64,000 bases of DNA from Phoronis australis (Eukaryota > Animalia > Phoronida): positions 1 to 64,000 of the forward strand of contig NMRA01000778.1 of assembly GCA_002633005.1 (NCBI GenBank), written 5' to 3'. The notes below the pieces were generated by a model. That model had not been told where the DNA came from. It did not search any database and worked only from the letters and a program-made list of their open reading frames with translations. Of this stretch, positions 18,481 through 40,378 are shown in pieces (within the stretch, counting starts at the first letter, position 1; each line of letters opens with the position of its first letter). Both the position numbers and the translations under genes were made by a program.

Positions 18481-19983
18481 CAGTATATTCTTTTTTCATA
18501 CATCAGTGAGTTTCTGTTTATGTAGAGGAGCCCATGATCTTTTCTGTGCAAAGAATAAAGGTAAGATTTGAATAAACCGTGAGAAGCAAGTAAAGTTTGA
18601 GCTGGCAGCGGAATATTCACGCACCGTATCTCTCCAAACTTTTTGTCCATCGAATAACAAAGGAATTCACCGGTAAACAATGAATTTTGCACTGTAAAAT
18701 AGGCATATCGCGGTATCCTCTGTTTACCGACGTCTCAAATTTTAACAAACACGTTTTGTTTATATAGGCTGGTTAAAATCGTGGACATTCTATGGTGTTG
18801 GCAAACAGACGTGTTGATTGGCAAACAGAAACCACCTGCTCTGAACAATTATCAAAAATCGTCATCCGTCTCCTCGACAAAGTGCCTTCCTAATGTTTGC
18901 AATCCCTCCGATTGAAGCACTTTGTCCAGCTGTCGGGCGCGCCTGATGTCACGGCGATTTGCTCCTTCACAAAAGGGAATATCAATGTAACAATCTGCAA
19001 ATGTAACTGCAATTGCGACAAAAGAAGACTGGAGTGGATCATCGAACAGCGTCCCAGCTGCCCAGGTTATTACGAGATAGTATTTCCCCGACCAAATGAT
19101 TAAATAATGTTCTGCAAATGCCAACTTGTAAATTTCAGTCTTGAGCAGTATCGGGTGCTTTTCATGTGATTGCTAATATTATTACTATTTTCTCAAACCC
19201 AAAATCCATTTCTAGTGTCTGTACCCAAGGGACAGAATAGACCAGCGATGTCATTTTCATGGCGGTAATTATGTAGTTTCAGAAACCAACGCGTTTTGTT
19301 TCTCGATATAATATCACCGCGTAATACTACTGAGAATATTGGACAAAGGGGAATGTTTGTGTGTTGGCCTAATGATGTCATAGAGACATGCGCACTTAAC
19401 GAGATAATGGAGACAACCTGAATAAATATATTATGAAAAACGATCGCACATGTATGTACAACGTTAGTTTTATTATAGTACTTGGGAGAAATTCAGGTGA
19501 GCAGAAAACTTGGGTTATTTTCGTGGGTTGGAAGCGCTAATATTGCTTTTTTCATTACTCTGATTTCTTGATACAATTTATGCTGTAAAAGGCAGAATAT
19601 TTAACGGTTCTATAAGTTCGATTAAGAAATAATTTTAACAACATTCTCTAAATGTTTTATTCATGGGATGTAGCAGCGTGTTTATAGAGTACCGTGTTAT
19701 CGAGTTTGTGAAATTTCACCTTTTTCTAACTGCATCCACGTAGATATGAAGCCTTTATTAAACACATTTACTAGGCTGAGTTGCATTTAAGATGAGTACT
19801 TGTGACAGGTCGGCACTCCCCGAGAGGAAGCAGACGATAAATGACGAGGGCTGACAGGAAAAAATCATTACTTATCTTATGCTACCTCAAATGATGTATT
19901 TGCGTCCAGGTAGTTTAGTAGTGTGCATTTGATATGAAAACATAACTTAATAGAGGAACCCGTTTCTTTTCAGATTATGCATC

Positions 19984-20062
19984 ATGGGTGGTCATTTAAA
20001 AATGGCGGTTACGTTGCAACTTATGGTATGCGTTTGTTTGTGGAAGATAGTTGACAGCGAAG
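19984..20062 (+). CDS. RTK exon 1: signal peptide ([26 protein letters not shown])
   Basis: Acceptor TTTCTTTTCAG at 19973 implies an upstream UTR exon. Hydrophobic N-terminus; donor G|GTAAGA. Met at 20002 (AAAATGG) is an alternative start. Confidence 0.75.
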
Positions 20063-23000
20063 GTAAGAACAATACGATTTCACCTTCTGCCAAACTGAAT
20101 AACTTTGTTTTTAAAATTCACTTAACACTAAAAACTTGGGGGTCGTTTTTTTTCAAAGGCAATGTGCCCGATAGTAGCCAACACGCTCGTAATCCCATTA
20201 TTGGGAACGCCGGGCGAGGTCGAGTTTGTTAATAAGCGAGAAATATTGCAACTGACCTTCATTTGAAACTTTTCATTTTCTGAACATTCATTGCTTGAAC
20301 TCGGCTAGTTCATCCAATTTTTTCACCTTGACTGGAGTTATTCACTCAGTTCAGCTCAGCTCGGAGCTCCCCGGTTGCTCTAATTTCGAGTGCTGAGAGT
20401 TCTCACAGTCCGATTGGTCAAGTACCACAGTCCTGCTACGCGACCAACAAGAGTGTGGAGAAAGGATATCATGCTTTGTATTGTTATGAGAACCATGCAT
20501 GCTGTATGTGTACCAGCACGTGAATATAAACGAAATATCAAAACCTAGGTCCTGTTCTAAAAAACTGACTTAGTTACTGTAAGACAAACTTTAAATTTCC
20601 GTCTCAGGTCCGTGTCAAGAAAGATCATGAGTTTGACCTAAGATATAAGTTTGGTTTTAATTTTGACTATCTTACTGGATGTGTAAGTTTCAAAGTTTGG
20701 ATGTTGAGACGAATCGTAGACTTAAGTAAAAAATTAACTCAAGTCAGTTTCTTGGAACGGTCCCCTAGATTGCTCAATTGAAATGCATTACACTCGGACT
20801 GTTGTGAACGTGCAGCATGACAGTTCGCACCGAGATACTTATGTCGCCTGCCACTGACTCTAGGTAACCTCAGTCACTAAATACACTTCGTGTACTTTTT
20901 CGGCAGATCATGTCGACAACTTCCCAACGGGTGCGTTCATGCTCATTAATGACGCTGAAGGAGAGTGCCCTAGTAACGAAGGTAAGCGTTGAGAAATGTT
21001 TTCATCATCACTCGTTACCTTGCATTTCCCAACAGTTACTAACTACATGTATGAATGTTTGTTCGCGGTTGAGATTATGATAGACACTTATCAAAGCACC
21101 TGGCCTTTTATAGAGGACTTCTTTTGTTTAGGGATTAGAAAGCAGAGATGCTTTTCCCGGCCATTTTATACCCTGCGGACTATCAAATAAAGATCAGGCA
21201 TTGTTGGAACGGCAAAAATCTGTTAAATACAACAGAAGAATAGAGAAATAACGGGCACGGTAACTGCTTTTTCTCTGGATACGTTGTGTCCTAACCTTTA
21301 TTAAACGGGCAACATAATGCCCGACTTATCCCAATGCCGACAAAGAATGTAGTGAAATTTGAGTGATGGAGGACTGCGTCATGATCGCCTCTATCTTTAT
21401 TATCTTACAGTCTCCTTCATTTTTGTTATCGTCATCATTATTGTCATCGTCATCTAATCGTTGTCGTCGTTGTTTATGTCACCTCCATAGTCAATCGCCA
21501 TCGTCTTCATCGTCGTCATCCCAGTCGCCATCTTTGTCCTTCATCATTGTCCTCATCATCTTCATACCCAGTGTCATTTTTGTCTTAATCATGATCATCA
21601 TAACCAACAACATCATCATAGACATAGCACCATTATGTCAAATTTTATTATTTCTTACTTGTGATACCAATATTGCTTTAAAATGACATTAGAAATTGAT
21701 CTGGGTTTATTGAGGTTTATGACAATCGTTTGTTAACATGGAAAATTAATACACTGCCTCTATTTCCAGAAAATTGGAAGAAAGTGCAATTAAGTACAGA
21801 GTCGAAGATTGTTGAAACGCAGGAGAGTTCTGCAAAGCTCATAAAAAATGACGGGCGGAACACTGTGATTCGGTTTTGTACGAGGTCGACCAAACCTAAC
21901 TTTCTGAAGCGGGCAAAGCATCAATGGCCTCCGGGCCAATACTGCGTCTTTGGAGATGGTTCTCAATGTCCTAAGCATTTCTGGAAAGGTAATGATGTAA
22001 GGCATCGTATCTAAGTTGTGTGCACGTTCGAGTCCAAACATTGTAATAGTGTAATGGTGGCGACAATTAACATCAGACAAAAGGTTAGTCGCGGCTACAA
22101 TGGCGGTCAGATTTGCTGTGGCGTGTTGGCCAATAAGGTGATGGCGATACTGAAGATGGCTGTCAGTGTGAATCATGCTGTTTACGGAGGAATTGTGTTT
22201 ACACCAATGTTTTATTTCACAATCACGTACCTGCAGCCAAGTACATGTACCTTTGTTCAAGTAGACGACTTTTGGCAAAACGGGACTATTCTGACCAATC
22301 ATAGATCCCCTTTACACTACAAAAGTTGAAACGGATCAGACGGAAGTGACGTATGTGTGTAAACAGAACTGACACAAAGCAAACTGACACCACGATGACA
22401 ACTTTTGGCTCCCGTTTTGAGACAAGGCAAGTTGCAGCCATCCGTGTCAAATTGAGTATACGTCTAAACGCGAAGCTGCCGGGGGCAACGCGAAAGTGAT
22501 CATCTTTGTTGCGTTTGGGGAAAAACGCGCCCTTAGTTTCAATCGTTTCTGAGTTGCGTGTGTGTAAACGGTCGCTTGACATCAATCATTTGGCGTCGTA
22601 TCAGTTGTGTCGTGTCAAAAATAATGTCTAAACGGAACTGTAGACAAAGCGGCTTTTCCTTTAAATCGCAAGAATTTATACAGGGCTCTGAGATCCGATG
22701 TGTGCACACACATGGTCTTAACTAATACAACCAGTATGTTTTGATTCAGATCTTGTTTTCTTTTTCAGTCAACATGACCATACCACTGCGACTCACTCCC
22801 GATAACTCCAGCGGTCCCGTTAACTTCACAAACGGCACAACAACCTTTCAGTACTGTTGCAGAGACGACGCCTCAAAAAGAGCACCCCTTCGTGTATCAT
22901 CTTTGTCTCCGTTCTACTTGATTCCATTAACGGGAGATAACTGCCCAATTGTAAGACACGACAAATTTTCTGAGTCGACAAATTTTCCAAGAAGACAGAA

Positions 23001-26000
23001 TTGACTTAAAAATAGGTTCTCTCACGAATTGTGCTTAACACCACAGATACATTTCTGTAGATCAACTTCGACATGACGTTGTTCCCTTTCTAGCGTATGA
23101 CTTTCCGGCATTTCATTAAATTGAGATTTCACTATGAAAATAAATACAAAAATAATGAACTGGACTGTAGGATTTGAGGTTTGTGAACCCTTCTTTTCTA
23201 CCATGTTTGATAGGTTTTGTATGTTTGGAATTGAAACTAAACAAAGATTTCGTGGGTTTTCATCATATGTTTAGATTTCTCGATAAATACATGTACGTTG
23301 AGCTGACTGGCAATGGTCGTTGCTAATGTCTTAGTCTTTTGTGAGGGCACCATCTAAAATTTCCGCGACTATTATTTCTGAGATAATAAAAGGACACGTT
23401 AGGTTCGAGGATTGTTTATATCCAGATCAAAGATTCGTTTCGATACTTAACACGCAAAATCAGTTTTTTTTAATTGTCTTCTTCTGTAAAACCGGATCTG
23501 GAAGCTCTGAAGGTTAGTGGGTGTCGGAGAGTTTCGATGTTAAAAACTGCACCCGTGCAATGCGGCTACCTAGGTTGTCAAACCCAATCAAGATCACCTG
23601 CGCACCGATTGAGACTGATGTTTACTAGTCCTGGTGGTATGTTCAGTAGCGCTAGAATTTCGCTTAAAGACAAGACTTTGCCAGATTACGTGAGATATTA
23701 GGAACACGTGAGTTTGGCTTGATTTTAGCTGCAAAGTCCTAGAGTAGATCTTAACGTTATTGAACGGTACCCCGGGTCTCTTCTTTAGGTAGTTGGATAC
23801 ACGTCACAGCCGCAGACATTGAAGTGGTCGTTTCCGGTGAAGGCTGACGAGCAGTTTCCGCGACCACCAAGACGAGGTCCTCCGCCAAGACTACCATCTG
23901 TGGACGAAGACAGAGCGAATGGGAATGCTTTCATGAAGTTCTGTCGGTACAGTGAAGGTAAGATCAGTTTGTAAATTGGTTGTATTTTCAAGAAGCTTTC
24001 ATTTCTGTTACTTGACCAGCAGCTTTTGTCACATACATGTAGTATCGCTTGTTTTTTAATTTCTAAAACCACTTTGAGGTGGTAATGTGGTAACATCATT
24101 TGTAAAATCTATCGGTTTATTTAAACTTAACTGTAACCTGAGACACTACGATTCGGTCGGTCATATCCCCGGTCATCTTCAGGTGATGTTACAGTATTCT
24201 TAAAAGAACCAACATGGGTATCTGGTACACGTATGGTGGACAGTTGATTTGTATGATTTCCCTGGTGCATGACGGAATTTAAACCTGGGACCTTTGGTGG
24301 TCACCGCTAGATCACTGATCTAATCATCCGTGACTCATTTGCCAAGTTGTTTGAACTTCCGTGTCAATATAAACAGGTTAGCTCTTAGTGAAAATAAACC
24401 AATAGATTTTAGAAATGTTCTTTTTTGTTTTCCGAATATTGATTAGCAAGATTAAACTTGGTTTGTACGTGTATGTCTGGTTAGTATGTGGCAAAACGGT
24501 GACTTAGCGCACCATTCAATCATGGGAGACGGTGTTGGCTTTGAGCATCCCTAATAGCCAAGAGCAATTAATTTTCTAATACTGTATATACTTTCGAAGA
24601 ACCCCTTTTAGATTGGCCACTCAGTATTATGGCTCCTTCACAGGTCCATTACTTATTCTTTGTTAATTTTGATGAATATATCTTTTTCTTGATGTCGGCT
24701 TCGTTTAAGTTAAAAAGAATTCACGTGCAGCTGAATCCTAAAATGACATGTATTTTTCTCATTGAACACAGTACATAGTTGATTTAGCGAACTTGAAGGT
24801 TCCATTTTTTAAATTTTGGTGGTACAGCAGCTTGTCCGAACTCCGCTTTTATGAAAATCCATAATTAATTGATAATCGATCTATAATTAACCATAATTAG
24901 TCGATAATTAAAAAAACTTTTAATACAAAAAGTGTATAATTCAAGAAATGAGAACATTTAATATCAGTTCCGTCGATCTATGAATCTCATTGTGTTTAAA
25001 TTAATGAAAATGTCACGGGTTTGCTATTCAAAAGTAAACAATACAACCAGTTACTGCAGTTTAATCATACATTGTACGTATACCAGTGGTACAGCCACAC
25101 TTCACAAAGTCCGATACAAAACTGACTCAAACCAAAAGGTCTACAGAGAATCCGCATAGGCATTTGCCTGTCCACGAGTTGTCAATAAATACCTTAAAGT
25201 TGACGTCACAATGTACATGTACATTGGAATACGAATAGTGACTCGCGCCAACGGGCGACAGTTCGTTACGTCACAGATACAAGACCATCTTCAAGTGAAT
25301 TTCGCTAACTCATTTCCCAGAAAAATATAAGGAAAAGTAAAGTGTTTTTTGCTGTTTTGTTTTTTGCGAAAGGCCTGCTCATGTTACGAGAAGCGTGAAA
25401 GAGACTCATCGGCTGCGAACGCCTAAGCATACCATTTGTAGGCAGTAATGTCACGTTTTGTATTTATGTCTACTGTTGTAACAAAATTTGAAACAAGACT
25501 CACTCCGTGTCTGTTTTCACTCTCCGATGCAGCTAACGACGTCACGAAAGGACCGGATCCTCAGGTAGCTGAAGTGGAACCGAACAAGATTCACCCAGGT
25601 AATGTGGCGCTTGCATGCATTTCCTATGAGTATCAGAGGCAGACTAAGGGATATAACCAAAATAAAGCACATGTGAGGCTCAACCGTCATCCAAGAAAAT
25701 GTAGGAACGTATTAGTTTTTTGAATTAGTTTTAACTGAAATCCTTTCTAATTTTCTCAGTCTTCTTCTAATTGCATTGTGTCCATTTCACCTTATCGACT
25801 ACATCTCGAAGCGTTGTGGAATAGGTACTAACTAGAAAACCAACTGCTCGCCAACTTTTGAATAAAATTTCTTGTGTTACCCCAACAGCATTGCCAATCA
25901 TCTTACCTGTCGCCGCTGTGTTACTCCTGTTGCTGGGAGTGCCTGCCACGTGCCTGATTCGGTGGTTCCGCAAGCGTCCGGTGAACAGTGATCAGGTGAA

Positions 26001-29000
26001 ACTACGGGAAAGGAGTTACTCTGCTGGAAACAGCGACGATCTGAGAAACGCGAATGAGGATACGCAAAATGGTTGGTGTTCTTAGAATATTTCGTTGAGG
26101 CTTGCATGTGCGTCTATGTATTACATACGAGCTTTTTTCCAAAAATTCCCCACCTTAACTTTACGCCTGATTGGATTTTTTCCAAGTGCACACCAACGGG
26201 TCTACTTTCGGAGCCTCAATTATAACTTCACAACGTTTGTAGCTTTTTCCCAAGTCATCAATGTCAGCGTTTTTTACAGTTACTTCAGAAGCCAGAATTC
26301 AACCAATACGTCGGATCAAGAATATACTTGAAAGCAAACCCCTACCATGACTTAGTTTATAAGGTCATATTTATGTTCTACTATCCGTTGGTCCTACTCA
26401 ACAGAGCAGATTGACAGCTTTCCGAAGGAGTCGTGCACAAACGCTGCAACACCATTCAAGACTCTATTGAATGCAAACTGTTACATGCTTGCAGCTCACT
26501 GTAATATACATTTTCCGAATACACACCCATGGGCTTATCGAAGGAAAATAATGGTAACAGGAATTTCTAGCCCATGGTCCATGGTGGCGATGCAGTCGGC
26601 AGTCCGAGTTTCCGAAAGACCTCCGCTCTGGGGTCGCTTTCCGAACTCTTCAGTATACATGTACCCCAAATGACATCTTACATGTACATGTATTTTTCTG
26701 TTTACAAGGAATTGGCTCTGTATTGAGGTCCATTCTTGATGAAGACGCCCAGTACAAACTGCAACAGCTGGTCGTACCATGGAATGCCATCAAGATTTTA
26801 AACAAAATCGGGCACGGTATGGTAAATCGCAACATATTTCATGCAAAAATAAAATTACCATTTTCCCATTTTGCAAATGCAGATTACTTTGGTAGAATTA
26901 ACGGAACCTTTACTAAATGTTGTTTTGTTACATCTACACAGTAAAAACCATGATAGTTAAAAGGTTATTTAAGCTTTATTGTTGTGGAGAAATTAGACAA
27001 CATAGAATTTTATTTGTGTCCTGAATACATATTTGTGAATAAATATCGAACAAATTTGTTGAAACCTTATTTGTGGCGTACAGTCTCCAAACTGTTTTGG
27101 TCAATTAATACACTCTTAAATAGTTTTTCACTTTGCTTGGTTGTCAAATGTTCTTTTTGAAAGGTTTGACCACCACTTAATTTGGGTATGTAAACGCGAG
27201 AATGGGCCATCTAATTTAATGTAGCTTCTAAAGCAAGATAGAGACGGTTATATTAAAGCCAATTTAGATTTACAATGACCTTTGGCATCATGTTTTAAGA
27301 CTCTTTGGTCTACCTTTTCATGAAATACATACTTCTCTCACACAAAACCGACATGTTTAAAAAAAAATTGTTAAGGTCAGTCAGTAATGTTACAATGCTT
27401 TGTAGAAGAAAGAGGAGACGTCAAGTGCCAGTTAAGGAATATAAACTTAAACTAAGTTACAAGACAGTCACGAATTTTTAATGTTTTAGGTGCCTTTGGT
27501 AACGTTTTTCGTGGGAAATACAGTCGATTGACAGTGGAACACTCCCAAACTGTTGCAGTTAAAGTAATGAAAGGTACATATGCTCAGCACTAGCTGTGTT
27601 TAGAGGTGTTACTGTATAACTCTGCTGTACAAGCGTATGAGGAACAGAGCAGTTTTTCAGCCAGATTTTTTCACTCAAATGTCCGCATAAAAAACGCATG
27701 TGCTTAAGTTAAAAAATTAGAAGCAAATGGTGCTCTGATTGTAAACGCCCCTCCATTTTTCGTAAAATACATTACCGAACGATTTCATTCCACACAACTT
27801 GCGGTGTCAGTGTGTCTCTGCGTGAAATAAAAAGGTTAAATATCGAAAAGATATAGTTTTTAAACTTATAGTTTTAATTTTAAGAAAGGCCTTGTTCCTC
27901 GATAAAATAACACTTTGTTCCTACTAAAATGTCTCTCACTTTCCTAAGTTCTGCAGTAAGACGTATATGTAGCTCCACAATTCAATTGTCGGGTTATACG
28001 GTGGAAAGAACCCCACGACACTGTGCTTACACAAAAAATCCATGAACAGTCATTGTTTGTCTGAGCTTGATTTTTGAGCGCGTAAGACTTAATTTCTGTC
28101 TTTAAAAGTCTTATGTCACTTTTTATGACAAAGTCAGATAAGTCTTCAATAAAACGCCTTAACAAGATTCATAACTTTCATCTCGGCTTTAGCTGATCGA
28201 CAAGTACTTTATTTTCTCGATTTTCGTCCCAGATTTTTAACAAAAGTTTGTAAACAATCACAAATATATTGTTAAATGCGAAGGCAACCTTTTTCCATGT
28301 CATTTTGAGCTAAAATAAGGATGGTTGGTCATCCTAGACATATTTTCCACTTAATTACAGCTTTTCGTAATTTTATTAATAACGCGTCCGCTACTCCGGA
28401 AGTGACGTTTTAGGAGGCAAGCGTTTCCCGCCATTTGGTTTTGCGTTGACTTTACCGTGCGAATCTGTTCTGTTCTACTTTTGTTTTGTGCTGTTTTTCA
28501 ACAATTGTCGCCACCGCTTTCCATCGGCGAGTATTCTGCGGCAAGATAGGTTAGTAGAGAACTCAACTACGTTGGATTTAGGGATTGTTTAGTGTGTTGG
28601 AAGCTGAAAATGGCTGGAGTCGGTGACCCGTATCACGGTTACAGTAGAGTGAGTAACGGAGACCTTGTTCACAGCAGTGGTGACGAGGAATTTTTTCACG
28701 GACATTCAGTGGGTGGGTACATGTTTGAGCCCGAGTATAACGAGGCAGAGTACGCACAGGCACAGGCAGCTGTTGAGAGAAACGACGCGGCTACTGAGGA
28801 CAGACGTAGTGACACAACTTGGTGCAAATGCACTGTGTGCGTTGTTATGCCTACCTCAATGGAATGCTGGTGCAGTTCAGAGTTCAAAGAGGCCAAGCCA
28901 CTACTGGACATGGTTAAGTGGACCTCCGGCATACCACGGACAGAGGAACAACTGTCCCACTTGCCAGAGTGTCCCGCGACACACTCCCAGTNGGCTGCTT

Positions 29001-32000
29001 AGAGGCTCTTTGCTGGAGAAAACAACACAGGGCGAATCACTACTGGTTCCAGGAATTGCGCGCTCTGGGGTACGTTCGGAGGCACGGGTGACAGTACAGT
29101 AGATGAAGTGCCTCCACTGGCTCCAGTCACTGTACTGGCCACAGCTCGCGAGGGTTCTCGCTTCAAAAACGCACTTCTCGGGGGTGGCGACGGGGCACTG
29201 CCGGGAATCAACACAGACGGAATGGCATCCTTCTTCAGGCGTTGTTTCGCGGGGACCTTCATCAGTTCAGCGTACAAATCCCTTTCGTAATCGGACGGCA
29301 GAAAGTGCTTGCCACACACGTACGGTAATTCTCCACTGCTTTGCACGTTGCGTGGACGGGTAACGCTGCGTTCTTCACACGAACGAGCCAAGTACGGCGA
29401 AGTGTATCATCCATCGGAAAGCAATGCAAAGGTACTCCCAAAGCGCGCTTGAGCCGATAATTAGTACATCCTGGTACGCAGCAACAGTGTGGCATGTTGA
29501 CTGACTAGTAAATGAAAGCAAATGACGACGGAACTTAACACAACCGAGGTAGAACAATGACTGACTCGGCAGCTCTTACAGTCAGACTATATGAAAAGAA
29601 ATTGGCGCGAAATGCTTGCCTCCTAAAACGTCTCTTCCGGAGTAGCGGACGAGTAATTAATGAAATTACGAAAAGCTGTACTTAAGTGGAAAATATGTCT
29701 AGGATAACCAACCAACCTTATTTTAGCTCAAAATGACATGGAAAAAGGTTGCCTTCGCCTTTAATATCTACAAAGAGAAATACATGGTTTTGCTTTGTTG
29801 AGAACTTTGGGCAAAATGCTCCTCGTTCCTGTTCACAAATATATTTAGTCTTCAGGACGTCTGAGAGTCTTTACACAATTGCTCTAGATGTGATCAACCA
29901 ATAATCAATTGGTGACATCATCAACGGTTAGCAATACTTGTTCCAGAAACGTGCTCTTTCGCTGACATGGATAAATTTGTGGGGGAGGCGGTGATAATGT
30001 CTGAGTTTAAACACCGCAATGTCCTGGGCATTATCGGCGTGTGCCTAGACCCTGCAACTACCGTACCCATGTTGATAATGCCGTTCATGAAACATGGAGA
30101 TCTGCACACCTATTTAAGAAGCTTCCGCTATGAAAAGCATCTGCAAGACCAGGTAATTAAACCAACGTTAAACCTCACTGTCTCACTAAAAGTACTGTAG
30201 CCTAACACTCAAGTCCATTTCACACTATAAAGATTTCAATAACCTTGCATTTGGGGTGTTTTAAAACTGTTTATGTATGCTACGCAATTTTTATGGTGCC
30301 TTTTCTTTCCAAAATCGTTCAGGTCAAAAACGCTGATAGTGCGGCCGCGCTGTCGTTTAATTAGGAACGACGGGGATTCTATTACCGTTTTGACTCGTAG
30401 TTGTACAAGTAGGCCAAGGTTTCTCATTAGGCAACTATATAAAATATTTACTGCCTTTTCAACAAATCTGTGATACCTTATACTTCTAGAAACCCAATGT
30501 TGTCGATCTGGTGGTATTTGGCTTACAAGTAGCCAGAGGAATGGAATATCTCGGTAGGATGAAGTTTGTTCACCGTGATTTGGCCGCGAGGAACTGTATG
30601 TAAGTTGAAGGAGTATCGATCGGGGATGGCACTTGGGGGTCCAGTGGTGGCGCCATTGTGTGTGACATTTAAAATGTAGGCAGCGAAACGGTTCTAGCTC
30701 TATGTCAAGCGCAGTCAGGTACTTTACATCTGTTACAGTTCAACACATGCATTCTGTCATCCCAAGGCACCCTTAATCCACTTGAAGCGAGAAATCTTCA
30801 CTTATGGAACGGAAACGGTGTATTCTGTTCCCTAGTTGAACATTCCAACCTTACCTAATTTTCAGGGACGTCCATTTTGATAAGATACACGAGTAAGATC
30901 TCTGGCAAGGCTTCGCGAAACACTTGCCTTTCCCTCGCGTGACTGTATGATCTCACATAATTTTGCTTTTTCTCTAGTCAGTCTCACGTCTCCGCGACCC
31001 TGATTTGCTTCAGCCATGCTGTAGTATTCAATGAACCTCAGTTTCCAGCATTTTTTTCATCATCTCAGGTTGGCCTGGCACTTTCCGTGCGGATTATTGT
31101 ACCTGGCATCCGCGACACACAATAATTGAGGACTACCTCATTTGAACAAGTCGTCGCACGGTATTTCTGTCCTCTCTCTGGCGTTATCGTTGCCCTCCCG
31201 AGAAAGATTTCGCTGGTCGCATATCAAGTTCTTGTCATGAAAATTTCAAGCTATCAGCAAATCGTGAACAGGATGCGTGAGAAAATTACAATCAATTTGA
31301 CGTGCAAGCTCCACTCCTAAGCACTCAATGGCCACTCCTTTGTGTTTACTATACCATGACTGGCGCCTCATAAGCGACATGCTGCCGCATTAACGACTCA
31401 ATACGTGTTTGAGAGCCAGGAACTGCGCCCGCTTTTCAAACAGTTGATCTCACACACAGATACAAACATACGTAAGATGGCATTTCACTTGGTTACAGGG
31501 TGGGTGAAGATTTGACAGTCAAGGTTGCCGACTTTGGGCTGACACGGGATGTCTACTGCCAGAATTACTACCGTCAAGACCGCAGAGCGCTACTTCCGGT
31601 GAAGTGGATGGCACTGGAGAGTCTCATAGATAGAGTGTACACAACAAAATCAGACGTGGTATGTTGCTCTTTTGTGTTTTGAGATTAAATCTGAACTGCA
31701 TTCCGTAGAGAGAATAGCTTGTGAGACTGAACGCAAGATCACGCAAACTTAAGAACGTGAAAAGCTTGTGTTAGTTCAGCGAGTAAACTCGGGATCTTCG
31801 TCGTACTAGGTGCGCATGAGTGGCAAAAATGCTGCTAGGCTGAGTTTCATTGTCTAAAATGCTACCAAAAATGCGTGTACTGTATCCAGACAGAGGAATT
31901 GACTGCAAAGGAGTAAGTTTTCGCCAGCAGTTATTTGGTTTCTTTACCAACGAGTCGCTTTTAAGCAGATACAGTATATGTCAACACAGTACTTCACCCT

Positions 32001-34702
32001 CTGCCATAGATGGATAAATGCTGTGACAATAAAACAAATGCCTTTTACAGCTGTGCATGTGTGTCCTTTGAATTACGAGTTCTGGTTACGAAAGTGCTAG
32101 CGAAAACGCCTGTAGATGACGTAATTCAAACATCCAACAAACGCCAGCAGAAGGTGACCCTTGTAACCGTTCACATTATTGGGGTTTTTCCTGCTACGGA
32201 AAACGTTAGCGTTTTAGCCATCACGTGAATCCATTTTAAGGTTTAATGGACTTTGTTCATACTACAACGGCATGTCAGTTGTTTTCAAGCCTAGGAACAT
32301 TTTCTGAAGCGGGTGAGACCGATTTTTAGAAAACTAGGCAACCAATAATTATGGCAAATTTGTTTTAGTAATACGCGAGTGGCTATCATCCTACTTTTCG
32401 TAAGCCCACCTTATGCGACTGACAGGTCAGTTGACTTGTGTAGAGTGCATCTAATTAGCATCAGAGTATTTTAGCCAAGAATACTCCCGATACCAGTTCA
32501 GTAACGTTAGGACCTCGCTAAAAAGCAAGACTTCGCGAGATTACGTGACATGTTGCCGTGTATTTAAAAAGAGAACACGTGACTTTGGCTAGATTTTAGC
32601 TAGGTCCTGACGTAGGTCCTAGTGCTACTGAACGCACGCCAGCCGCATTTCTCTTTTTCCAGTCATTCAGAGAGTTGTTGAATAAACCTCTTAAGGTTTT
32701 GTAACCCTTAGAAAAATGCTTAACATAGGTTAACGTATAGCGGAAATGGCTCATGGGATTCAAACGAAATTCTCAGACACTATACTGTTTCACTGTTCTC
32801 CAAAACGCTATTAGGGATTGATCTTGAAATGTCCCACTTTTGCATGAGGGACTATTATTTTCATGAAAAAAAAAAAAAAACCGCACACAACACTAACGAA
32901 ATGATAATTTAGAAAACTGTGACATGATTTTTGGGATTCCGTCTTGAATATTTTACATCAAATGCAATTTGGAAATTAAATTAATTTTAGTCCCAATGTA
33001 CCTTTCTTTTTTGCTATATTTTACTAAAAAGACAGGGTCACGTGACCCAATCCCTGAGATTTTGGTAACACTGAAGTGAAAATCAAATTCTACAAACTCT
33101 CTATTTTCAGAAAATATGTAGTTTTACTTTTGTAGACTGTCATTGTCTCTAAGGTCCTACACGCATAGCTTAATCGTTGCAAAGGGAATATTTCAACATG
33201 CAATACCCTCCATAGCCCATCTTTTTAAATTCAAAATAATTGAAAACACCTGCATTTCTTTTCGTTTTCCGCTGATACGGTTCGTGAAATGAGCTTCTTT
33301 GTTCCTAGTGGTCATACGGTGTGACACTGTGGGAGATCATCACGCTAGCCATGACACCTTACCCCCTCTTAGGCAATTCGGATGTCCTTGCGCAAGTTAA
33401 AAGTGGTGCAAGACCAGAGAAACCGGAAGACTGCCCTGATCAAATGTAAGTACTTCTGCTGCCTGAGAGTCGTGGAAGCTATCAGAAAGCACGTCGACTT
33501 TCCGCTCTTTTTGTTAAAGCGAGACAGTACGCTCTTTCGGAGGCACAACATCAGCATATTCAAACTAAAATAAAACTAGGTTTTAGACGATTCAGCACAT
33601 CAAAATACTTAGGCGGCGCACCATAGGGGGCTGCGGGGCTATAGCCTCCCACTTTTTTCAGTGCTATGAAGAACATAGTCTATAGGCGATGCACCACAGG
33701 GGGTTGAGGGGCTTTAGCCCGCACTTTTTTTCAGTGCTACGCCGCCAATGAAATATCACAAATGAGCTCCATTCGGAGCATAACAATATTGCAGAAATTC
33801 ATTTTGAGTTTGAAGTATTTCTTCCAACGCTAAACACAAAATTAAAACGAAGCAAGAATTGTGACCAACATGATAGACGGCTCGCTAGTTGTGAGCCAGG
33901 AATGTACAGGCACGTTATCCTATAGTTTTAAACAACTACGCTTTTGAAAACCATTGTTTTAGTTTCTGCTTTAGGTGGAGCCCTTTGCTTTTTTGTGGAA
34001 TATGACGAAAACAGTCAATCAGAAAGATGCCGTCAGCGTGCCCTGACTCTTACGTGGACATTTTCCTGTGAAAATTGTAGATGGTTCTTCCTCTTACGAC
34101 ATCCTAGATCAGCTCAGTGTTAGTATTCATTACTATCAACACTTCTATTGCCGGTGTCCTCCCTCACCTACTGCTTGCGTTCATCATTAAAATCACCACC
34201 ATCACCACCACCACCATTATTACTATTATAAAAATCACCAACCTGGACATCATTTTCACCCTCCCCGCAATTACCAGCACCATCAACGCCGCCTTTATTA
34301 CATCACCAATATCAACCCCCACTTTCGCTGCACCTAAAGTCGTATCTTCCGACATCTGTGACATAAGTTTCAGCTCATCACCAAGCTCGTCTGTATCTAA
34401 AAATCTTGTTATTTCACAGATACGATACCATGGAATCGTGTTGGTGTGAGACTGCCGAGCACCGACCGGACTTCGTCGACATCGTGGATCAACTCGAAAA
34501 ATTTTTGGCTGAAGAGTGTAATTATTTGGATTTCAACCAAAATGTTGAGAGCAACATCTTCAGTGAGGAACGAAGCTCATATTGCCAAGAGCCGACGGCA
34601 GAGACCTCTGGAGTATCGAACACAATTAAGCATATTTTCGTTTCGTCACAGCCAGTACCAGGACGATCTTTCTCGCCACTCATAGTCACAGCGCAGATAT
34701 GA
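19984..34702 (+). CDS. Spliced gene, 14 coding exons, 686 aa: receptor tyrosine kinase with ApeC (apextrin C-terminal)-like ectodomain and MET/RON/TAM-like kinase domain
   Basis: join(19984-20062,20907-20981,21770-21988,22769-22950,23789-23957,25533-25598,25889-26071,26709-26816,27490-27573,29947-30152,30490-30599,31499-31658,33309-33445,34420-34702) = 2061 nt. All introns are GT..AG with compatible phases (1,1,1,0,1,1,1,1,1,0,2,0,2), and there is no internal stop. Confidence 0.88.
20546..20768. mobile_element. MITE in RTK intron 1
   Basis: Imperfect TIRs CTAGGTCCTGTTCTAAAAAACTGACTT and AAGTCAGTTTCTTGGAACGGTCCCCTAG. Confidence 0.6.
20907..20981 (+). CDS. RTK exon 2: start of ApeC ([25 protein letters not shown])
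   Basis: TTTTTCGGCAG acceptor and G|GTAAGC donor. FPxGxFxL...CP matches the ApeC start WPxGxYxL...GCP. Not in the ORF track. Confidence 0.85.
21770..21988 (+). CDS. RTK exon 3: ApeC (..[24 protein letters not shown]..)
   Basis: TTTCCAG acceptor and G|GTAATG donor. Contains the ApeC hallmark FC...WPxGxYC....CPxxF. Confidence 0.9.
22304..22639. mobile_element. PIF/Harbinger-like MITE, copy A (RTK intron 3)
   Basis: Ends CCCTTTACACTAC and ATGTCTAAACGGAAC, with internal GTGTGTAAAC sub-repeats. Clearly homologous to 55928-56358. Confidence 0.65.
22769..22950 (+). CDS. RTK exon 4: ApeC (..[22 protein letters not shown])
   Basis: Long polypyrimidine acceptor and GTAAGA donor. Contains the ApeC hallmark YCCRxD...PFYL...C. 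Confidence 0.92.
23789..23957 (+). CDS. RTK exon 5: end of ApeC ([22 protein letters not shown])
   Basis: TCTTTAG acceptor and G|GTAAGA donor. VxG start and terminal [FY]CxY of ApeC. Not in the + strand ORF track. Confidence 0.88.
25533..25598 (+). CDS. RTK exon 6: extracellular stalk ([22 protein letters not shown])
   Basis: TGCAG acceptor and CCAG|GTAATG donor. Symmetric phase 1-1, so it could be skipped in frame. Confidence 0.65.
25889..26071 (+). CDS. RTK exon 7: transmembrane helix and basic stop-transfer ([29 protein letters not shown])
   Basis: ACAG acceptor and G|GTTGGT donor. About 23 hydrophobic residues followed by RWFRKR. Confidence 0.9.
26709..26816 (+). CDS. RTK exon 8: juxtamembrane to kinase start (..IKILNKIGH)
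   Basis: AAG acceptor after a T-rich tract and G|GTATGG donor. Supplies IGH-G of the Gly loop. Confidence 0.85.
27490..27573 (+). CDS. RTK exon 9: kinase subdomains I-II ([16 protein letters not shown])
   Basis: TTTTAG acceptor and AAAG|GTACAT donor. GxGxFG and the VAVK catalytic Lys. Confidence 0.95.
28610..28915 (+). pseudogene. Truncated KolX / P2X7 cytoplasmic-ballast-like Cys-rich ORF of the Kolobok element
   Basis: GYMFEPEY...[24 protein letters not shown] matches the YxFEP...WCxCxxCxxM...ExxCCxE pattern. Truncated after the Cys cluster. Confidence 0.75.
28999..29495 (-). pseudogene. THAP zinc-finger N-terminus of the Kolobok transposase, frame-shifted and truncated
   Basis: [19 protein letters not shown] (ORF 29262-29495) joins [15 protein letters not shown] (ORF 28999-29391) across a 2-nt frameshift near 29320. 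No DDE domain remains. Confidence 0.9.
29947..30152 (+). CDS. RTK exon 10: kinase subdomains III-V ([29 protein letters not shown])
   Basis: TTCCAG acceptor and CAG|GTAATT donor. Contains the alphaC Glu and the hinge. Confidence 0.96.
30490..30599 (+). CDS. RTK exon 11: catalytic loop ([20 protein letters not shown])
   Basis: TTCTAG acceptor and GTAAGT donor. Tyr-kinase signature HRDLAARN. Confidence 0.97.
31499..31658 (+). CDS. RTK exon 12: activation segment ([34 protein letters not shown])
   Basis: ACAG acceptor and GTATGT donor. DFG, YxxxYY and [10 protein letters not shown] motifs. Confidence 0.97.
33309..33445 (+). CDS. RTK exon 13: kinase IX-X ([23 protein letters not shown])
   Basis: CCTAG acceptor and GTAAGT donor. 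This frame is not in the ORF track. Confidence 0.96.
33611..33750. repeat. ~72-bp tandem duplication of a GC-rich MITE end in RTK intron 13
   Basis: AGGCG..GCACCA.AGGGGG.TG.GGGGCT.TAGCC..CACTTTTTTCAGTGCTA occurs twice. Confidence 0.65.
34420..34702 (+). CDS. RTK exon 14: kinase XI and C-tail ([17 protein letters not shown]..)
   Basis: TTTCACAG acceptor, CW....RPxF motif, TGA at 34700-34702. Candidate AATAAA signals at ~35374 and ~35434. Confidence 0.93.
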
Positions 34703-35170
34703 AGAGGCAGTTGCAAAAGAAACGTCCACCGATAGCAAAATCATCTTGATGGAGACGATATAGACTCGAAAGACTGACATATGGACATAAGGACAGTGTA
34801 CCGGTATAAAGAATACTCAGGTTTTGGTGTTTTACGTCATAATATTCTGTAATAGGACGAGGTCTGGCTTCAGAATAACCGGTATTTTAAGAGAGTCCGG
34901 ATTGATTTCTTAATAACTCATCAGACAGCTAAGACTGGTATTGAGACAGGGCAATTATACTGTTACCCCTTCTGCGATTGACCCTCTAATTATAAATTCG
35001 CTACACGTTCTGATGTTAAAAACATTAGTTTCCATCACAGGCACATTTACTCCTCCAAGGGAACGTCACCGTGTTTTCAATCCTCTTGTTTCGATAGAAA
35101 TGGATTATAATGAGTGGCATGGGATTCCATGGACGACCATACGGCAATGGCAACTTAAACCTTTCCCCTG

Positions 35171-35280
35171 CGACGATGACCTTAATGGGCGTGGTCTGTA
35201 CCTACCGGCCACGACGAGGACATTACTAGGCGTGGTCTGAACCTACCCGCCGCGACGAGGGCCTTAAGAGACGTGGTCTG
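35171..35280. repeat. 41-bp minisatellite, ~2.7 copies, in the probable RTK 3' UTR
   Basis: Unit CGACGA.G.C.TTA...GGCGTGGTCTG.ACCTACC.GCC. Confidence 0.75.
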
Positions 35281-36230
35281 AGAAATAACGAAATGTCAGC
35301 CAGTTCTTTTCATGACTAGAAAACCTTCCTTATCTTTGTCCAGAACAAAATGAGAACAATGTTAAGCGATTGTAATAAAAAAATTCTTGGCACAAGTCGT
35401 GGGTTAGTGCGACTACGAACATCATGTCGAAAAAATAAAACGTTACGATATATTTAAAGTTAATCTTCTTCATCACCCTGAATTTGATGTAAATAAATCT
35501 GTTGATACTCGTTTCAATACATCATCATTTACATGGAAACCCAAAATATGTATTTAAGTGGGGTTAAATAGTTAACCATCGGAAGACTGGTGGCGTACTC
35601 TGTAGATGAAATATCTTGACAGTTGAAGGAGAACGCCACCCCAAAAGCAACTTAGTTTGTATCAATTTAGATCAAGTAGTTCCACTCGATAGCAGCAAGT
35701 ACAGCTCTTTTACCTGACGGCAGATGGAGGTGCTGAAATTAACCAATGACGTCAGTGGTTGGAATGCAATCTGTTCAGCAGTTCACAACACACTTACCTT
35801 TGTCAGCTTATCGCTTGAATTCATCATTGTACACTCTTACAAATACATCAAGTTATTGAACAGACGTGTTATTTTATTTCACTGTTACGGACTTTTAGGT
35901 ATTTGAACGTACCGTATTCTACAAAGTTCGGTAGGCCAAGGTCGGTCGCGGGAGTTTGGGTTTAAACTTAGTTTATTGCATGTAAAGCCTACCGTGTTTT
36001 TTTCATTGTTGGCTTCTCAAAACATTTCCAATCATGAACACTCCAAGGCATTGCAAATTGTATCTAATGAGACAGACTTTGTTTGTGTTTCATGTAAGCA
36101 TTGGTTAGGGTGAGAACAAGTCATTTTGAGAAATCGGCAAGTTTTGCTCTTCAGTAGTGAAAATTTAGAAATTCTCCAAAAAATCGATATCATTCACATT
36201 TCAGTTCTACAAATACACAGATCCACCCCN

Positions 36231-36928
36231 CAGGGTGACCACAATCATTGTTGCAACGGACGGCTCACTAAGAGATGACACTACGGCTTGGGCAGCAGTT
36301 GCTTGGACTCGCGATGGTCAACGCCTCTTCGAATGGTCAACAGCACGGGTTGGAAAATCCTCGTCTTTTAGAGATGAATGTGAAGCACTTGAGGACGCCC
36401 TTGTCTGGCTCTCACAGAACACAACACCTGCAAACAGATCATTTCTATTTAAAGACTCCCTCAGCCTCCTTAGCAGGCTAAAAACTGGTCATGTGAAAGA
36501 TTCTTGGATCCCTATGTTCAGCTCTATTAATGGTCTCTTCACCAGTGTTTACATACCGGGACACTGTGGCATCTCATTCAACGTCAAGGCGGATGAGCTT
36601 GCAGGCATCGCAGAACCAATTGCCGACCTGCTCCTCACACCAGCAGATGTAATCTCCAGAGTGCGTGAATCGCTTACAGATGCCGAGATTGTACAACAGC
36701 AGGAGAGATGGGCAACAAAGCGCCTCATAGCGCGAAGATGGCAATACGGAGATGCAGCAAAAACTCGTATCAGGGGAAAAGATGGAAGAGTGTGTAACCA
36801 CCACAAACTTGGTTGCATCTCCAAATTTGCATTGCGTGCGATACTGGAAGGAGGAGGGCCAGAGACCATCCCGGTGCCTACCCTCTGACGTCACCACAGA
36901 AACAGAAACAGAAACAGAAACAGAAAGC
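36231..36928 (+). mobile_element. 3' end of a non-LTR retrotransposon with C-terminal RNase H and (ACAGAA)n tail
   Basis: ORF 36235-36888 has TDGS, ECEAL, KDSLS and IPGHCGISFNVKADELA (RNase HI D-E-D-D). The stop is followed ~10 nt later by five ACAGAA units. Begins at an assembly N (36230). Confidence 0.8.
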
Positions 36929-36930
36929 AC

Positions 36931-37340
36931 GATGATAAACGTCCATGCGGCAACTCGCAATCCCGACTTATACGAGTGCTCATCCGACGAAGACTTCACA
37001 GGTCGATCGTTAGGTTTCACAGGCTATCAATTCGAACCGGAATACACTGATCAAGAAACAGAGAAGCTCCGTGAATGTGCATAGACAGAATCGTTTGAAT
37101 GAGTTGCCATGGTGTCAGTGAGATAACTGCACGATAATGGAAATGACTGACGCTTGCGTTTGCTGCTACAAAATTCCGCAATGAAACGCCTTCTTGGAGA
37201 AGCGCAGCTGTGCCTCACGGACCATCCTGATTTTGCACCGCATGTAAACCGAGATGCTTTCGACATTTATTAGGGCTGAGAAAAAGAACTGGCTAAAACA
37301 TCCGGCTACACCATGAGGAGCAAACAGAAGCCTCACGAAC
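36931..37340 (+). pseudogene. Decayed KolX / P2X7-ballast-like ORF, copy 1
   Basis: SSDEDF..GYQFEPEY, then frame-shifted WCQ*DNCTIM..ACVCCYKIP and CLTDHPDF. Confidence 0.72.
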
Positions 37341-37569
37341 ATGTCAATGCCGGCTTTCCAAACAGCTCATGCCAGGGCAGAAAAAGAGACTGAGTAAGAA
37401 GTCAGATGTTGTGCCTAGTGTGTTTGGTTCGCTAGGCAGGAGACAAAACAACGCGGATCGGTTGTTGCTCAGTTTTAATTATGCAGAATTGTACCTGGCC
37501 ATGGAAACATAAACAATTACAATTAATTCAAGGCATTAGAACATAACGTTTTATATAACCTTTTTGATG

Positions 37570-37925
37570 ACTTACTCGTTCGTCGGGCTACTGTTTGGAC
37601 CTCTGGGTGTAGGATGTTTTCGCCAATTGTTTTTCCCAGTCCCAAAAACGTCGTAAGCAGACTTCTTAGATACGGCGCAAAATCAGGATTGTCCGTGAGA
37701 CACATCTACGCTTCTCCAAGATGGCGTTTCACTTGCGGAATTTCGTAGCAGCAAACGCAAGCGCCAGTTGTTTCCATTATCGTGCATTTAGCACACTGAC
37801 ACCATGACAAATCATTCAAACGGTTTTCGGAACAATCCAGATGTTCCTTACTGTTGTCTGTGCACGGTCACGGCGCCTCTTTTGTGTTTCTTGATTAGTG
37901 AATTCGGATTCGAACTGATAGCTTG
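37570..37925 (-). pseudogene. Decayed KolX / P2X7-ballast-like ORF, copy 2 (inverted)
   Basis: The minus strand reads YQFESEF..RLNDLSWCQCAKCTIMETTGACVCCYEIPQ..CLTDNPDF and ends at a GTAAGT donor. It is a nucleotide-level inverted paralogue of ~37025-37340. Confidence 0.75.
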
Positions 37926-40378
37926 TGGCGTTCAAAATCTAGCACTGTTTTGGTACTTCAAGTTTAAAACTTAGATAAAAAGTTATCACTCCGTTCCCGG
38001 TAAGAAAAAAAACAAGCGGGCAAAAGCATTAAAGTAAAGAAAACCAATATGAAACTTATCGGTCCTTTGGGAAGTGGCCCTTTATAAAGATAAACACAAG
38101 TTAACCTTTTTAGTCATTTTGTAATATTTATAATGTACCAAATTAAAACTACTCTCCAGAGTTGCAGGCTATATTTCTGCAAATGTCAGAGAAAACCAAA
38201 TTGGAGGTACTAACAACAACCATTGTTGAGACAGTAATGCTAGCAATTACCTTTCCATTTCATTACCTCAGATCTACACCAATACAAAGGGCGTGCTGAA
38301 TAGGCATCGTAAAAGTTGTCTGGGATCAGCCGGAGAGGTCACCAGTGTGAGCGAGAAATTCTACAAATGTTGGCCGTGTGAGCGCATGCTAATTCAGTGT
38401 TTGCTGACAGAAAGCTGTTGTGAAACAATATCTTGATTGTATATCCTATCAGATGTTAGGAGAATCTTCATTTAGATATTCATATACATTATTCGAATCA
38501 TTGTTACTGTGCAACTTCTGCCCAGAAAGTTTTGCTGTGGAAGGGTAAACTTACTTCGCGGCCCCCGACGAGCTGGTAAGTACATGTAGATTTGCAGATT
38601 TGCGACTAATTTACCTAAATAATCACGTGCACATTATTTCTTTGGCTCACTAGTATAGTCTTTTCGTGACTGGAAGTTTAGTTTCTAACTTTGGCTGGTT
38701 TATGTTCGTGATGTCTTCAGGCCGGCCTGGTCGAGTTCCGAGCCACTGGACGAGATAACAAGGGTTTTTGTGTGTTTAGAACTGAAAAAAATCGCAAGAC
38801 TAAAATTACAACACACAGCTATGTTCTTCTGCCTGTATTTTACCAACGAATAATTCGAATTTATCACCGAACAGGGCCCAAAACTCCTGCGACCGACCTT
38901 GGTAAGTTGGCTTATCGAACTTTGTAGGCTACGGTACGATCCAGTACCTATAAATCCGTAACAGCGAATTAAAACAACACATTTGTTCAATAACTCGATG
39001 CAGTTGTTAGGGTTTTACATGGAATTTTATTGCTTTTGTGGTGTAAAACGATGAATTCAAGCGATAAGCTGACACCAGTAAGCTTGTCGTGAACTGCTGA
39101 ACAGACTGCGTTCCAACCTCTGACGCCATCGGTTAATTTCAACACCTCCGCCTGCCGTCTTGTGTCAGGTAAAAGAACCGGCGTACTGTTATCGAGTGGG
39201 ACTACTCGATCTAAATTGATTCAAAATAGGTTATTTTTTGGGTGGCATTCTCCTTTAAGGAGGATTTCAGGTAATTTGTTGAGTCGAAACTGTATTTTTA
39301 CTCAAGAATTCAAGTTGCCCTATCGACGATCGCGAGGCAGCGACGCATCAGTCGGCAAGTTTTCGCCATGGGATTTCAGCACATTTAAAAAAGATCGTAA
39401 TTTAACAACAAAACTTGATAGCAAGGCACCACAGTTTTGTAGAAAGTCTGTCATAGGTTACAGATACGTCACAGCTCGCAAATTTGATTTCACCCGTTGT
39501 CGGAGACTGGGTTTCAACCGCCTTAGGCTACAACAAGTGAATTTTTCTAAGCGACCTTGGCAAATACGGTAGCCCTAATAGATGGTAACATCAACACACG
39601 AAACGATAACCCTGGCAGCAAGTTTGTGGTGACAGACGCAAACGGCCGGGCAACTGAATTTCGGGCTGGGCGAGTAGATTTTCTGGCTCACTCGCCCAGC
39701 TGGCGAGCAGGGTTTTGAAACCTGGGTATATCCCTGTAAATACCTGTCCTTTCTCACTCAGTGGCATTATCTTTTGCTTTCAGAAGAAAGGCTTTATACT
39801 AATGGTAAAAATTTTCAACTTGGTACACATAATGCGAAAATGGCATTCAGGGACTACATCGATTGTCTTATTGTCAGTAAAAAGCCCGTTAATGTTACAC
39901 TTTGATGATCGAATAAATTTTTCATCAACAGGCAAGTTTGTCACTACATGTAACTACTTAAACCACAATATTTCTTCAGTTTTAAAGCTCGTACAATACA
40001 GTTGTGCTGCCTCTTTATAAAGCTGAAGTAATTACCGATTACGCTTGCGAATTGTCATTTTTCTGTTGACCTATAGAAATGTCCGGCGATCAAAACGAAA
40101 TATTCCCTGGGTAACTATAATCTGGAATTCCTGGGAGTGGGGTCGGCTATAAAATAAGGAAACTCGCTCATCTAGAGAATTTTATTGTACATAGCACAGT
40201 TTTGTAAAGTTACCGCTGTGAAAAAGTTACCCTTGACTTTTGAGCGGCACGTCCCATACACCTCTTATATTGGGAGCACTCCCACCCAGGACAGTATGTG
40301 GATATGTGCTGCTAGCCTACCATCCGGGTCGCGGGTGAGTTTCTGAAAACAAACACTTAGTTCCACTGAATAAACCCG

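Follow-up and report, generated by a model that had tools for sequence, protein, structure and literature searches.

The ApeC domain is promiscuous, occurring in more than 20 architectures (PMC8361754). Those ApeC proteins whose function has been tested act either as secreted agglutinins or as cytosolic modulators of TRAF6. The receptor tyrosine kinases (RTKs) of invertebrates include Hydra Sweet Tooth, which has a lectin-like head (PMC2680970), and the Met-LP RTKs of lophotrochozoans and echinoderms (PMC6374515). Here we describe a gene at positions 19984–34702 of the plus strand in a 64-kb stretch of Phoronis australis DNA (contig NMRA01000778.1, positions 1 to 64,000; hereafter the window), in which exons for a signal-peptide-like start, an ApeC ectodomain, one transmembrane (TM) helix, and an intact tyrosine kinase follow one another in a single open frame.

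Gene structure and reading frame

Fourteen coding exons join into 2061 nucleotides (nt) encoding 686 amino acids, and a scripted test of the exon borders gave the terminal stop codon as the sole stop. All 13 introns (290–2373 nt) are of the GT-AG type. The 26 splice dinucleotides are intact, and neither a frameshift nor an internal stop is found across the 686 codons. The features of the gene are as follows.

19984..20062, plus strand: exon 1 (coding part); start codon and signal-peptide-like stretch, amino acids 1–26; phase-1 donor, top 1.2%
20907..20981, plus strand: exon 2; start of ApeC, FPxGxFxL, Cys47, amino acids 27–51; no Pfam match alone
21770..21988, plus strand: exon 3; ApeC, Cys88, Cys110, and Cys118, amino acids 52–124; PF16977, 31.2 bits
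22769..22950, plus strand: exon 4; ApeC, Cys154, Cys155, and Cys183, amino acids 125–185; all four sequons; PF16977, 25.8 bits
23789..23957, plus strand: exon 5; end of ApeC, Cys237, Pro/Arg-rich loop, amino acids 186–241; no Pfam match alone
25533..25598, plus strand: exon 6; stalk, amino acids 242–263; sense-strand RNA of about one read's worth
25889..26071, plus strand: exon 7; single TM helix at about amino acids 264–286, basic stop-transfer cluster, juxtamembrane part; sense-strand RNA in all three runs
26709..26816, plus strand: exon 8; end of the juxtamembrane part and start of the Gly-rich loop, amino acids 325–360; RON alignment from about amino acid 334
27490..27573, plus strand: exon 9; Gly-rich loop to VAVK (Lys385), amino acids 361–388; Pfam kinase piece
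29947..30152, plus strand: exon 10; αC Glu402 and hinge, amino acids 389–457; PK_Tyr_Ser-Thr, 41.7 bits
30490..30599, plus strand: exon 11; catalytic loop HRDLAARN (Asp487, Asn492), amino acids 458–493; Pfam kinase piece
31499..31658, plus strand: exon 12; DFG (505), activation loop with Tyr513 and the twin Tyr517/518, KWMALES, amino acids 494–547
33309..33445, plus strand: exon 13; kinase C-lobe, amino acids 548–592; Pfam kinase piece
34420..34702, plus strand: exon 14 (coding part); end of the kinase, tail with Tyr628 (YLDF) and Tyr647, stop codon
34703..35500, plus strand: likely 3' untranslated region (UTR); AATAAA at 35374, 35434, and 35492; one-strand RNA

An acceptor at 19974 suggests a noncoding exon further 5' of exon 1. 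Introns 1–3 and 5–9 are in phase 1, and intron 4 is in phase 0. The 22-codon stalk exon 6 is symmetric in phase 1, so that the frame is kept if it is skipped. Donor sites were ranked among the 960 GT sites of the gene with a matrix trained on introns 8–13, which are anchored by kinase homology. The donors of introns 1–7 rank in the top 1.2, 1.2, 1.5, 6.1, 1.2, 2.6, and 13.3%, respectively, and the exon 5 donor, which follows the last ApeC exon, is the same as that of exon 1. The borders of exon 12 are identical in 14 of the 21 related kinase loci that match this exon end to end, and the kinase intron positions presumably agree with those of vertebrate MET.

The position of the assembly N at 28992 should be noted. 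It lies in intron 9, downstream of exon 9, and the link from ApeC through the TM helix to the kinase start is therefore gap-free. A scaffold-join artefact at this N was considered and rejected, since the N is located between matching inverted ends of one transposon, past the ApeC–kinase link.

Ectodomain

Amino acids 5–23 form a hydrophobic stretch (Kyte–Doolittle value of 1.8), taken as a putative signal peptide. The ectodomain motifs then occur in the order FPxGxFxL (amino acid 32), WPPGQYC (104), YCCRDD (153), PFYL (172), and FCRY (236). Exon 3 alone matches the Pfam ApeC model (PF16977) at positions 39–93 with 31.2 bits (E 2.4e-7, cut-off 26.5). Exon 4 alone matches positions 123–160, colinear with exon 3, with 25.8 bits (E 1.1e-5), slightly below the same cut-off, and exons 2 and 5, each searched alone, give no Pfam match. 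Against a local profile for which four ApeC domains from databases (two of oyster and two of liver fluke) were the sole input, the spliced ectodomain reaches 62.4 bits (E 2.5e-21 with a single target sequence). In pairwise BLASTP (E 4.5e-12), ectodomain positions 6–217 (exons 2–5) align with the first of the oyster ApeC domains and are 23% identical to it. The domain extends over approximately amino acids 32–239, and Cys47, Cys88, Cys110, Cys118, Cys154, Cys155, Cys183, and Cys237 align with all eight cysteines of the oyster ApeC. All eight are N-terminal of the TM helix, as are the four N-glycosylation sequons of the protein, which are all in exon 4 and predicted to be outside. Taken together, the profile and alignment comparisons confirm the ectodomain as one divergent ApeC domain.

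In the ESM Atlas, the top three clusters for exon 3 are ApeC (0.90–0.91, 187–195 shared features), with a recognition score below the trust level, and exon 5 gave no usable match. A sequence search of the PDB returned no ApeC relative, and an AlphaFold2 model of the oyster ApeC domain, made from a shallow and partly misaligned five-row alignment, had a mean pLDDT of 36.2. No second ApeC or kinase gene was found within the 64-kb window; the ApeC is single, with no tandem cluster of the immune type.

Transmembrane segment and kinase domain

Hydropathy rises to 2.55 around amino acids 264–286 (peak windows at 263–283) and a basic cluster follows. The only other segment above 1.6 after the signal stretch is at amino acids 414–415 (1.8), within the kinase fold. 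Since a TM-plus-basic pattern recurs at five places in the plus frames of the window, the weight of the TM assignment is in its position and frame, not in its rarity. Directly after the helix, the juxtamembrane part of exon 7 (25985–26030) has an RxRxxS motif (RERSYS) that could serve as an Akt-type site of phosphorylation. The helix also has a Cys at its inner end, which may be palmitoylated.

Pieces of the Pfam PK_Tyr_Ser-Thr model lie on exons 9–14 in model order. The kinase motifs are all kept: the Gly-rich loop (exons 8/9), Lys385, Glu402, HRDLAARN, DFG, Tyr513, Tyr517/518, and KWMALES. The spliced intracellular part is 42–48% identical to nine RON proteins, in a comparison set that is almost all mammalian RON. 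When PDB entries were ranked by exon, MERTK, AXL, and MET were best for exon 10, RON and MET for exon 11, and MERTK, AXL, and IGF1R for exon 12. Judged from its sequence, the kinase is MET/RON/TAM-like, and we make no claim of orthology to any member.

Three memberships were tried and rejected. For MET/RON, Pfam finds Sema, PSI, and TIG in a RON protein and none of them on exons 1–7. TAM receptors are defined by an Ig-Ig-FN3-FN3 ectodomain and the motif KW(I/L)A(I/L)ES, and the present gene has no Ig or FN3 match and the motif KWMALES. For the apextrins, no exon gives a MACPF match, and only 31 amino acids precede the ApeC domain.

A sequence-only reading of this DNA had proposed 14 exons splicing in frame into a signal peptide, a Cys-rich ectodomain with the ApeC pattern, a 22-amino-acid stalk, one TM helix, and a Tyr kinase, and had expected ApeC and PK_Tyr_Ser-Thr from hmmscan/InterPro. 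The span 19984–34702, the 13 GT-AG introns, and the open frame were all recovered, as were the junctions 23957/25533, 25598/25889, and 26071/26709 that it had named, each in phase 1. Frame and hydropathy support a type I receptor layout. The ApeC assignment is upheld by PF16977 (exons 3–4), the local profile, BLASTP, and the eight aligned cysteines, and the tyrosine kinase, with PK_Tyr_Ser-Thr on exons 9–14, is intact with every catalytic motif present.

Transcription and the link between ectodomain and kinase

Reads of three raw RNA runs, selected by species label and used at ~18–19% of each, were mapped over 19500–35500 and 21700–27700, and a splice joint was listed only at three or more reads. 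Over 19500–35500, most of the mapped reads stem from copies of intronic repeats located elsewhere. The bins of exons 3, 4, 6, 7, and 9 contain minus-strand first mates only, and several intron bins are zero. In most stranded libraries, minus-strand first mates represent plus-strand RNA. The approximate depth summed over the three runs is 0.9 for exon 3, 3.4 for exon 4, 1.4 for part of exon 5, 0.9 for exon 6, 4.7 for exon 7, and 2.4 for exon 9. Sense-strand reads are also present in intron 4. At the 3' end, one-strand RNA over 34452–35500 reaches a depth of 3.5 and ends near the AATAAA sites at 35374–35492.

For the three ectodomain–kinase junctions of the sequence-only reading, same-strand RNA on the ApeC, TM, and kinase exons is in favor, and the junctions do not appear among the listed joints. 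Because transcription is shown but no joint between these exons is listed, we infer the join between ectodomain and kinase; that the ApeC, TM, and kinase exons are spliced as one mRNA and form one gene is nevertheless very probable.

Search for relatives and prior descriptions

Relatives were searched with single-exon queries of 53–72 amino acids, and the negatives below are correspondingly weak. HMMER with exon 3 against 1.84 billion representatives gave four matches, two with ApeC, none with a kinase, and two apparently by chance. The ApeC-bearing matches are an oyster astacin-ApeC-CUB-kringle-lectin protein and a liver-fluke multi-ApeC protein. The architecture of the former comprises astacin, two ApeC, CUB, kringle, Sushi, and C-type lectin domains; the latter also has EGF-like domains and a C-terminal hydrophobic segment resembling a TM anchor. 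A word-index search for longer proteins passed none of four candidates for exon 3 and none of six for exon 10. With exon 12, 14 of 19 passed, none of which has PF16977: nine RON, one coral Cad96Ca-like kinase, one SH2/PTB kinase, and three short pieces. In metagenomes, none of 369 pattern matches of exon 3 was confirmed, and exon 12 gave at least 59 kinase loci (284 kb, most loci short), none of the 59 matching ApeC or aligning with the ectodomain. By these searches, exon 3 appears to have no close homolog among the representatives covered.

The sequence-only reading knew of no described example of this fusion, and none was found in the literature examined, which leaves uncovered the ApeC survey of Li et al. 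2021 with its possible architecture listing. The fusion is not mentioned in the text examined of PMC12373286, PMC9585378, PMC8361754, PMC8662651, PMC3342872, PMC11087794, PMC2680970, PMC8878817, PMC6374515, and PMC9897584, architecture figures aside. The same reading had gone further in two respects. Its term "new RTK class" goes beyond one gene for which no ortholog or paralog was found; a class label would need orthologs. The suggestion that no animal RTK with a lectin-like head had been seen before is overstated, Sweet Tooth being such a receptor (PMC2680970). What stands is a real new architecture of the ectodomain-swapped invertebrate RTK type, ApeC on a MET/TAM-like kinase, with no description found in the literature examined.

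Proposed mechanism and alternative explanations

We lean, with modest conviction, toward a single gene encoding a single-pass RTK whose divergent ApeC head and MET/RON/TAM-like kinase would be activated by clustering on a repetitive, likely microbial, glycan. The receptor would be exported with ApeC outside, disulfide-bonded, and N-glycosylated. The domain may bind a multivalent polymer such as peptidoglycan, as the secreted amphioxus and mollusc ApeC proteins do, a step for which we hold belief and doubt in about even balance. A repetitive glycan surface, most likely a microbial cell wall, would then cluster several receptors. Once clustered, the receptors would trans-phosphorylate one another at Tyr517/518 and afterwards at tyrosines of the tail, Tyr628 among them, to which SH2 proteins would be recruited; this order, activation loop before tail, is standard RTK logic. 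Concerning the origin, exon shuffling is likely, in which a phase-1-flanked module of ApeC exons would have entered a MET/TAM-like gene ahead of its TM and kinase exons.

Published observations on other ApeC proteins are consistent with such a mechanism. For secreted ApeC proteins, Lys-type peptidoglycan is a ligand in polymeric form and not as small fragments (PMC9585378), and ApeC proteins self-associate as dimers or tetramers (PMC8361754). In the literature examined, every ApeC domain with a tested ligand binds peptidoglycan or microbes, one of them without any DxED motif (PMC9585378). Microbe sensing by the present gene is a hypothesis taken from these distant homologs. It is doubtful that the gene founds a family of pattern-recognition RTKs conserved among invertebrates, which would convert intact peptidoglycan or another microbial wall polymer directly into MET-like phosphotyrosine signaling with no Toll/TIR or ITAM adaptor in between, as an animal counterpart of the plant lectin/LysM receptor kinases.

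Several observations weigh against the proposed microbial receptor. The window ApeC has none of the three DxED motifs, nor does either ApeC domain of the oyster protein, and its identity to database ApeC domains is 23–27% (34–37% for the best database match of exon 3). With such divergence and no DxED motif left, transfer of a ligand from the studied ApeC proteins is weak. The motifs are described as "relatively conserved" in ApeC, yet ACP5 and BgACP1 are counted as members although each of the three is missing from both (PMC8361754, PMC9585378), and their loss is thus not disqualifying for membership. The same divergence, together with the occurrence of ApeC only once in the window and outside any tandem immune-type cluster, would suit a receptor of the same structure with a self ligand, such as a glycoprotein, a glycan of the matrix, or a secreted protein of the ApeC/apextrin type. 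It would report the state of adhesion or matrix in development or tissue upkeep, in a role likened to that of MET/TAM-type kinases in motility and survival. Sea-urchin apextrin is an apical-matrix protein with a proposed adhesion role, mussel ACPs peak in embryos (PMC9585378, PMC8361754), and the self-association of ApeC proteins (PMC8361754) points in the same direction. However, every ApeC with a tested ligand in the literature examined binds peptidoglycan or microbes, including one without DxED (PMC9585378), and ApeC binding to a self ligand was not found in that literature. We regard a self ligand as possible, at a clearly lower level of confidence than a microbial one. In the PDB ranking, ROS, IGF1R, and ALK are slightly above AXL/MERTK and TAM/MET for exon 13, and the kinase is therefore described as MET/TAM-like with no clear ortholog.

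The remaining adverse observations concern the link itself. No splice joint with three or more reads was found in 21700–27700; among the joints listed for 19500–35500 (15 of 39), none of the 15 is exonic and all are in repeats. Expression is low in the three runs at the fraction used. Read-through past exon 5 meets a stop five codons on, giving a secreted ApeC, with AATAAA/ATTAAA in intron 5; read-through past exon 7 meets a stop four codons on, giving an anchored ApeC without the kinase. Secreted or kinase-less anchored isoforms may arise in this way. The exon 7 donor (GTTGGT, after the TM exon) is the weakest of introns 1–7, with a rank of 13.3%. These points would agree with two adjacent genes or a dominant short isoform, that is, an ApeC protein ending after exon 5 (secreted) or after exon 7 (anchored), beside an independent kinase gene whose first exon was missed. 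A scan of 23958–25888 for ATG...GT gave 18 candidate first exons, one of them with a hydrophobic core (24415–24487), but its donor is poor (GTGGCA) and its bin is empty of sense-strand RNA. Exon 8 must be preceded by a phase-1 donor, and the distance between it and the TM exon is only 637 nt. Moreover, the exon 5 donor equals that of exon 1 in the top 1.2%, introns 5–9 are all in phase 1 with the frame kept, RNA depth is of comparable order, and on one strand, across the ApeC, TM, and kinase exons, and the assembly N is downstream of the link. Separate genes or a dominant short form are thus improbable. No ApeC-plus-kinase protein, ortholog or paralog, was found in the weak single-exon searches. 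This result, the low expression, and the transposon in intron 9 might also indicate a young nonfunctional chimera or a decaying copy from a recent rearrangement, which we consider very improbable: 686 codons in 14 exons are free of stops and frameshifts, the catalytic residues, eight cysteines, and 26 splice dinucleotides are intact, and sense-strand RNA is accompanied by a 3' UTR with poly(A) signals.

In an ApeC–kinase fusion, phosphorylation would serve as a built-in read-out of binding, which makes the ApeC ligand and the role of DxED directly testable. If the ligand is microbial, the gene provides a direct route from cell wall to phosphotyrosine in an animal; if it is not, the gene is still a clean case of a MET/TAM-like kinase with a new head acquired by phase-1 exon shuffling. 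Ectodomain swaps are common among invertebrate RTKs, and only one gene is in hand.

Other features of the window

Intron 9 contains a DNA transposon remnant (28272–29764), outside the protein, with 171-nt inverted ends (92% complementary) and TTAA at both ends. It contains two open reading frames (ORFs), of which the one on the minus strand matches THAP (Pfam, 29.5 bits) and the one on the plus strand is weakly P2RX7_C-like, its 15 bits being under the cut-off. The middle of the element is collapsed to the one N at 28992, and the RNA runs abound in reads from its other copies. The layout fits, we assume, a Kolobok-type element. At 36731–37927, facing inverted-repeat arms carry two remnants of a cysteine-rich ORF that by eye resembles the one in the intron 9 transposon, neither piece having a Pfam match. 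A reverse-transcriptase remnant lies at 845–2042 (Pfam RVT_1, 52.8 bits at 845–1462), and a 239-codon ORF at 36169–36888, which has no Pfam match, resembles on visual inspection the terminal RNase H part of a long interspersed nuclear element.

A short plus-strand ORF at 8495–8641 encodes a 23-amino-acid signal-peptide-like stretch and a 26-amino-acid Lys/Arg-rich hydrophobic peptide followed by a stop. It has a GTAAGT donor-like site at its end and no Pfam match. It looks like the precursor of a secreted cationic peptide, possibly antimicrobial.

Comparison with known systems

The closest kinase domains are those of MET/RON and TAM (TYRO3/AXL/MERTK), with RON at 42–48% identity and these families first in the PDB ranking for three of the four exons tested. 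RON shares KWMALES with the window kinase, and the activation-loop tyrosine pair is aligned. The ectodomains of MET (Sema/PSI/IPT) and TAM (Ig/FN3) are absent from the present gene, whose ectodomain is ~240 amino acids long. The MET tail has a tandem docking site, whereas the tail of the present gene has one YLDF site. Amphioxus kinases related to MET/AXL were reportedly named MARTK (D'Aniello et al. 2008). We know of no ApeC ectodomain in the amphioxus MET/AXL-related and EXTK expansions. These amphioxus expansions, EXTK (PMC3342872) among them, are lineage-specific RTK expansions of an invertebrate.

Hydra Sweet Tooth and VKR are invertebrate RTKs that carry a borrowed ligand-binding module on a tyrosine kinase, as the present gene does. 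Their folds are C-type lectin or Venus flytrap, in contrast to ApeC here, and the VKR kinase is insulin-receptor-like. Apextrins (MACPF and ApeC) share ApeC with the present gene, but only they have MACPF, and they are secreted. The ectodomain, with its putative signal peptide, is similar in layout to the short-form ACPs (amphioxus ACP1/2/3/5, oyster CgACP1, and snail BgACP1), which consist of a signal peptide and one ApeC of ~200 amino acids with eight cysteines; amphioxus ACP5 and snail BgACP1 have lost all DxED motifs, as has the window ApeC. In the short-form ACPs, the protein is secreted and ApeC is C-terminal, whereas in the present gene the ApeC domain is at the N-terminus, ahead of a TM helix and a tyrosine kinase.

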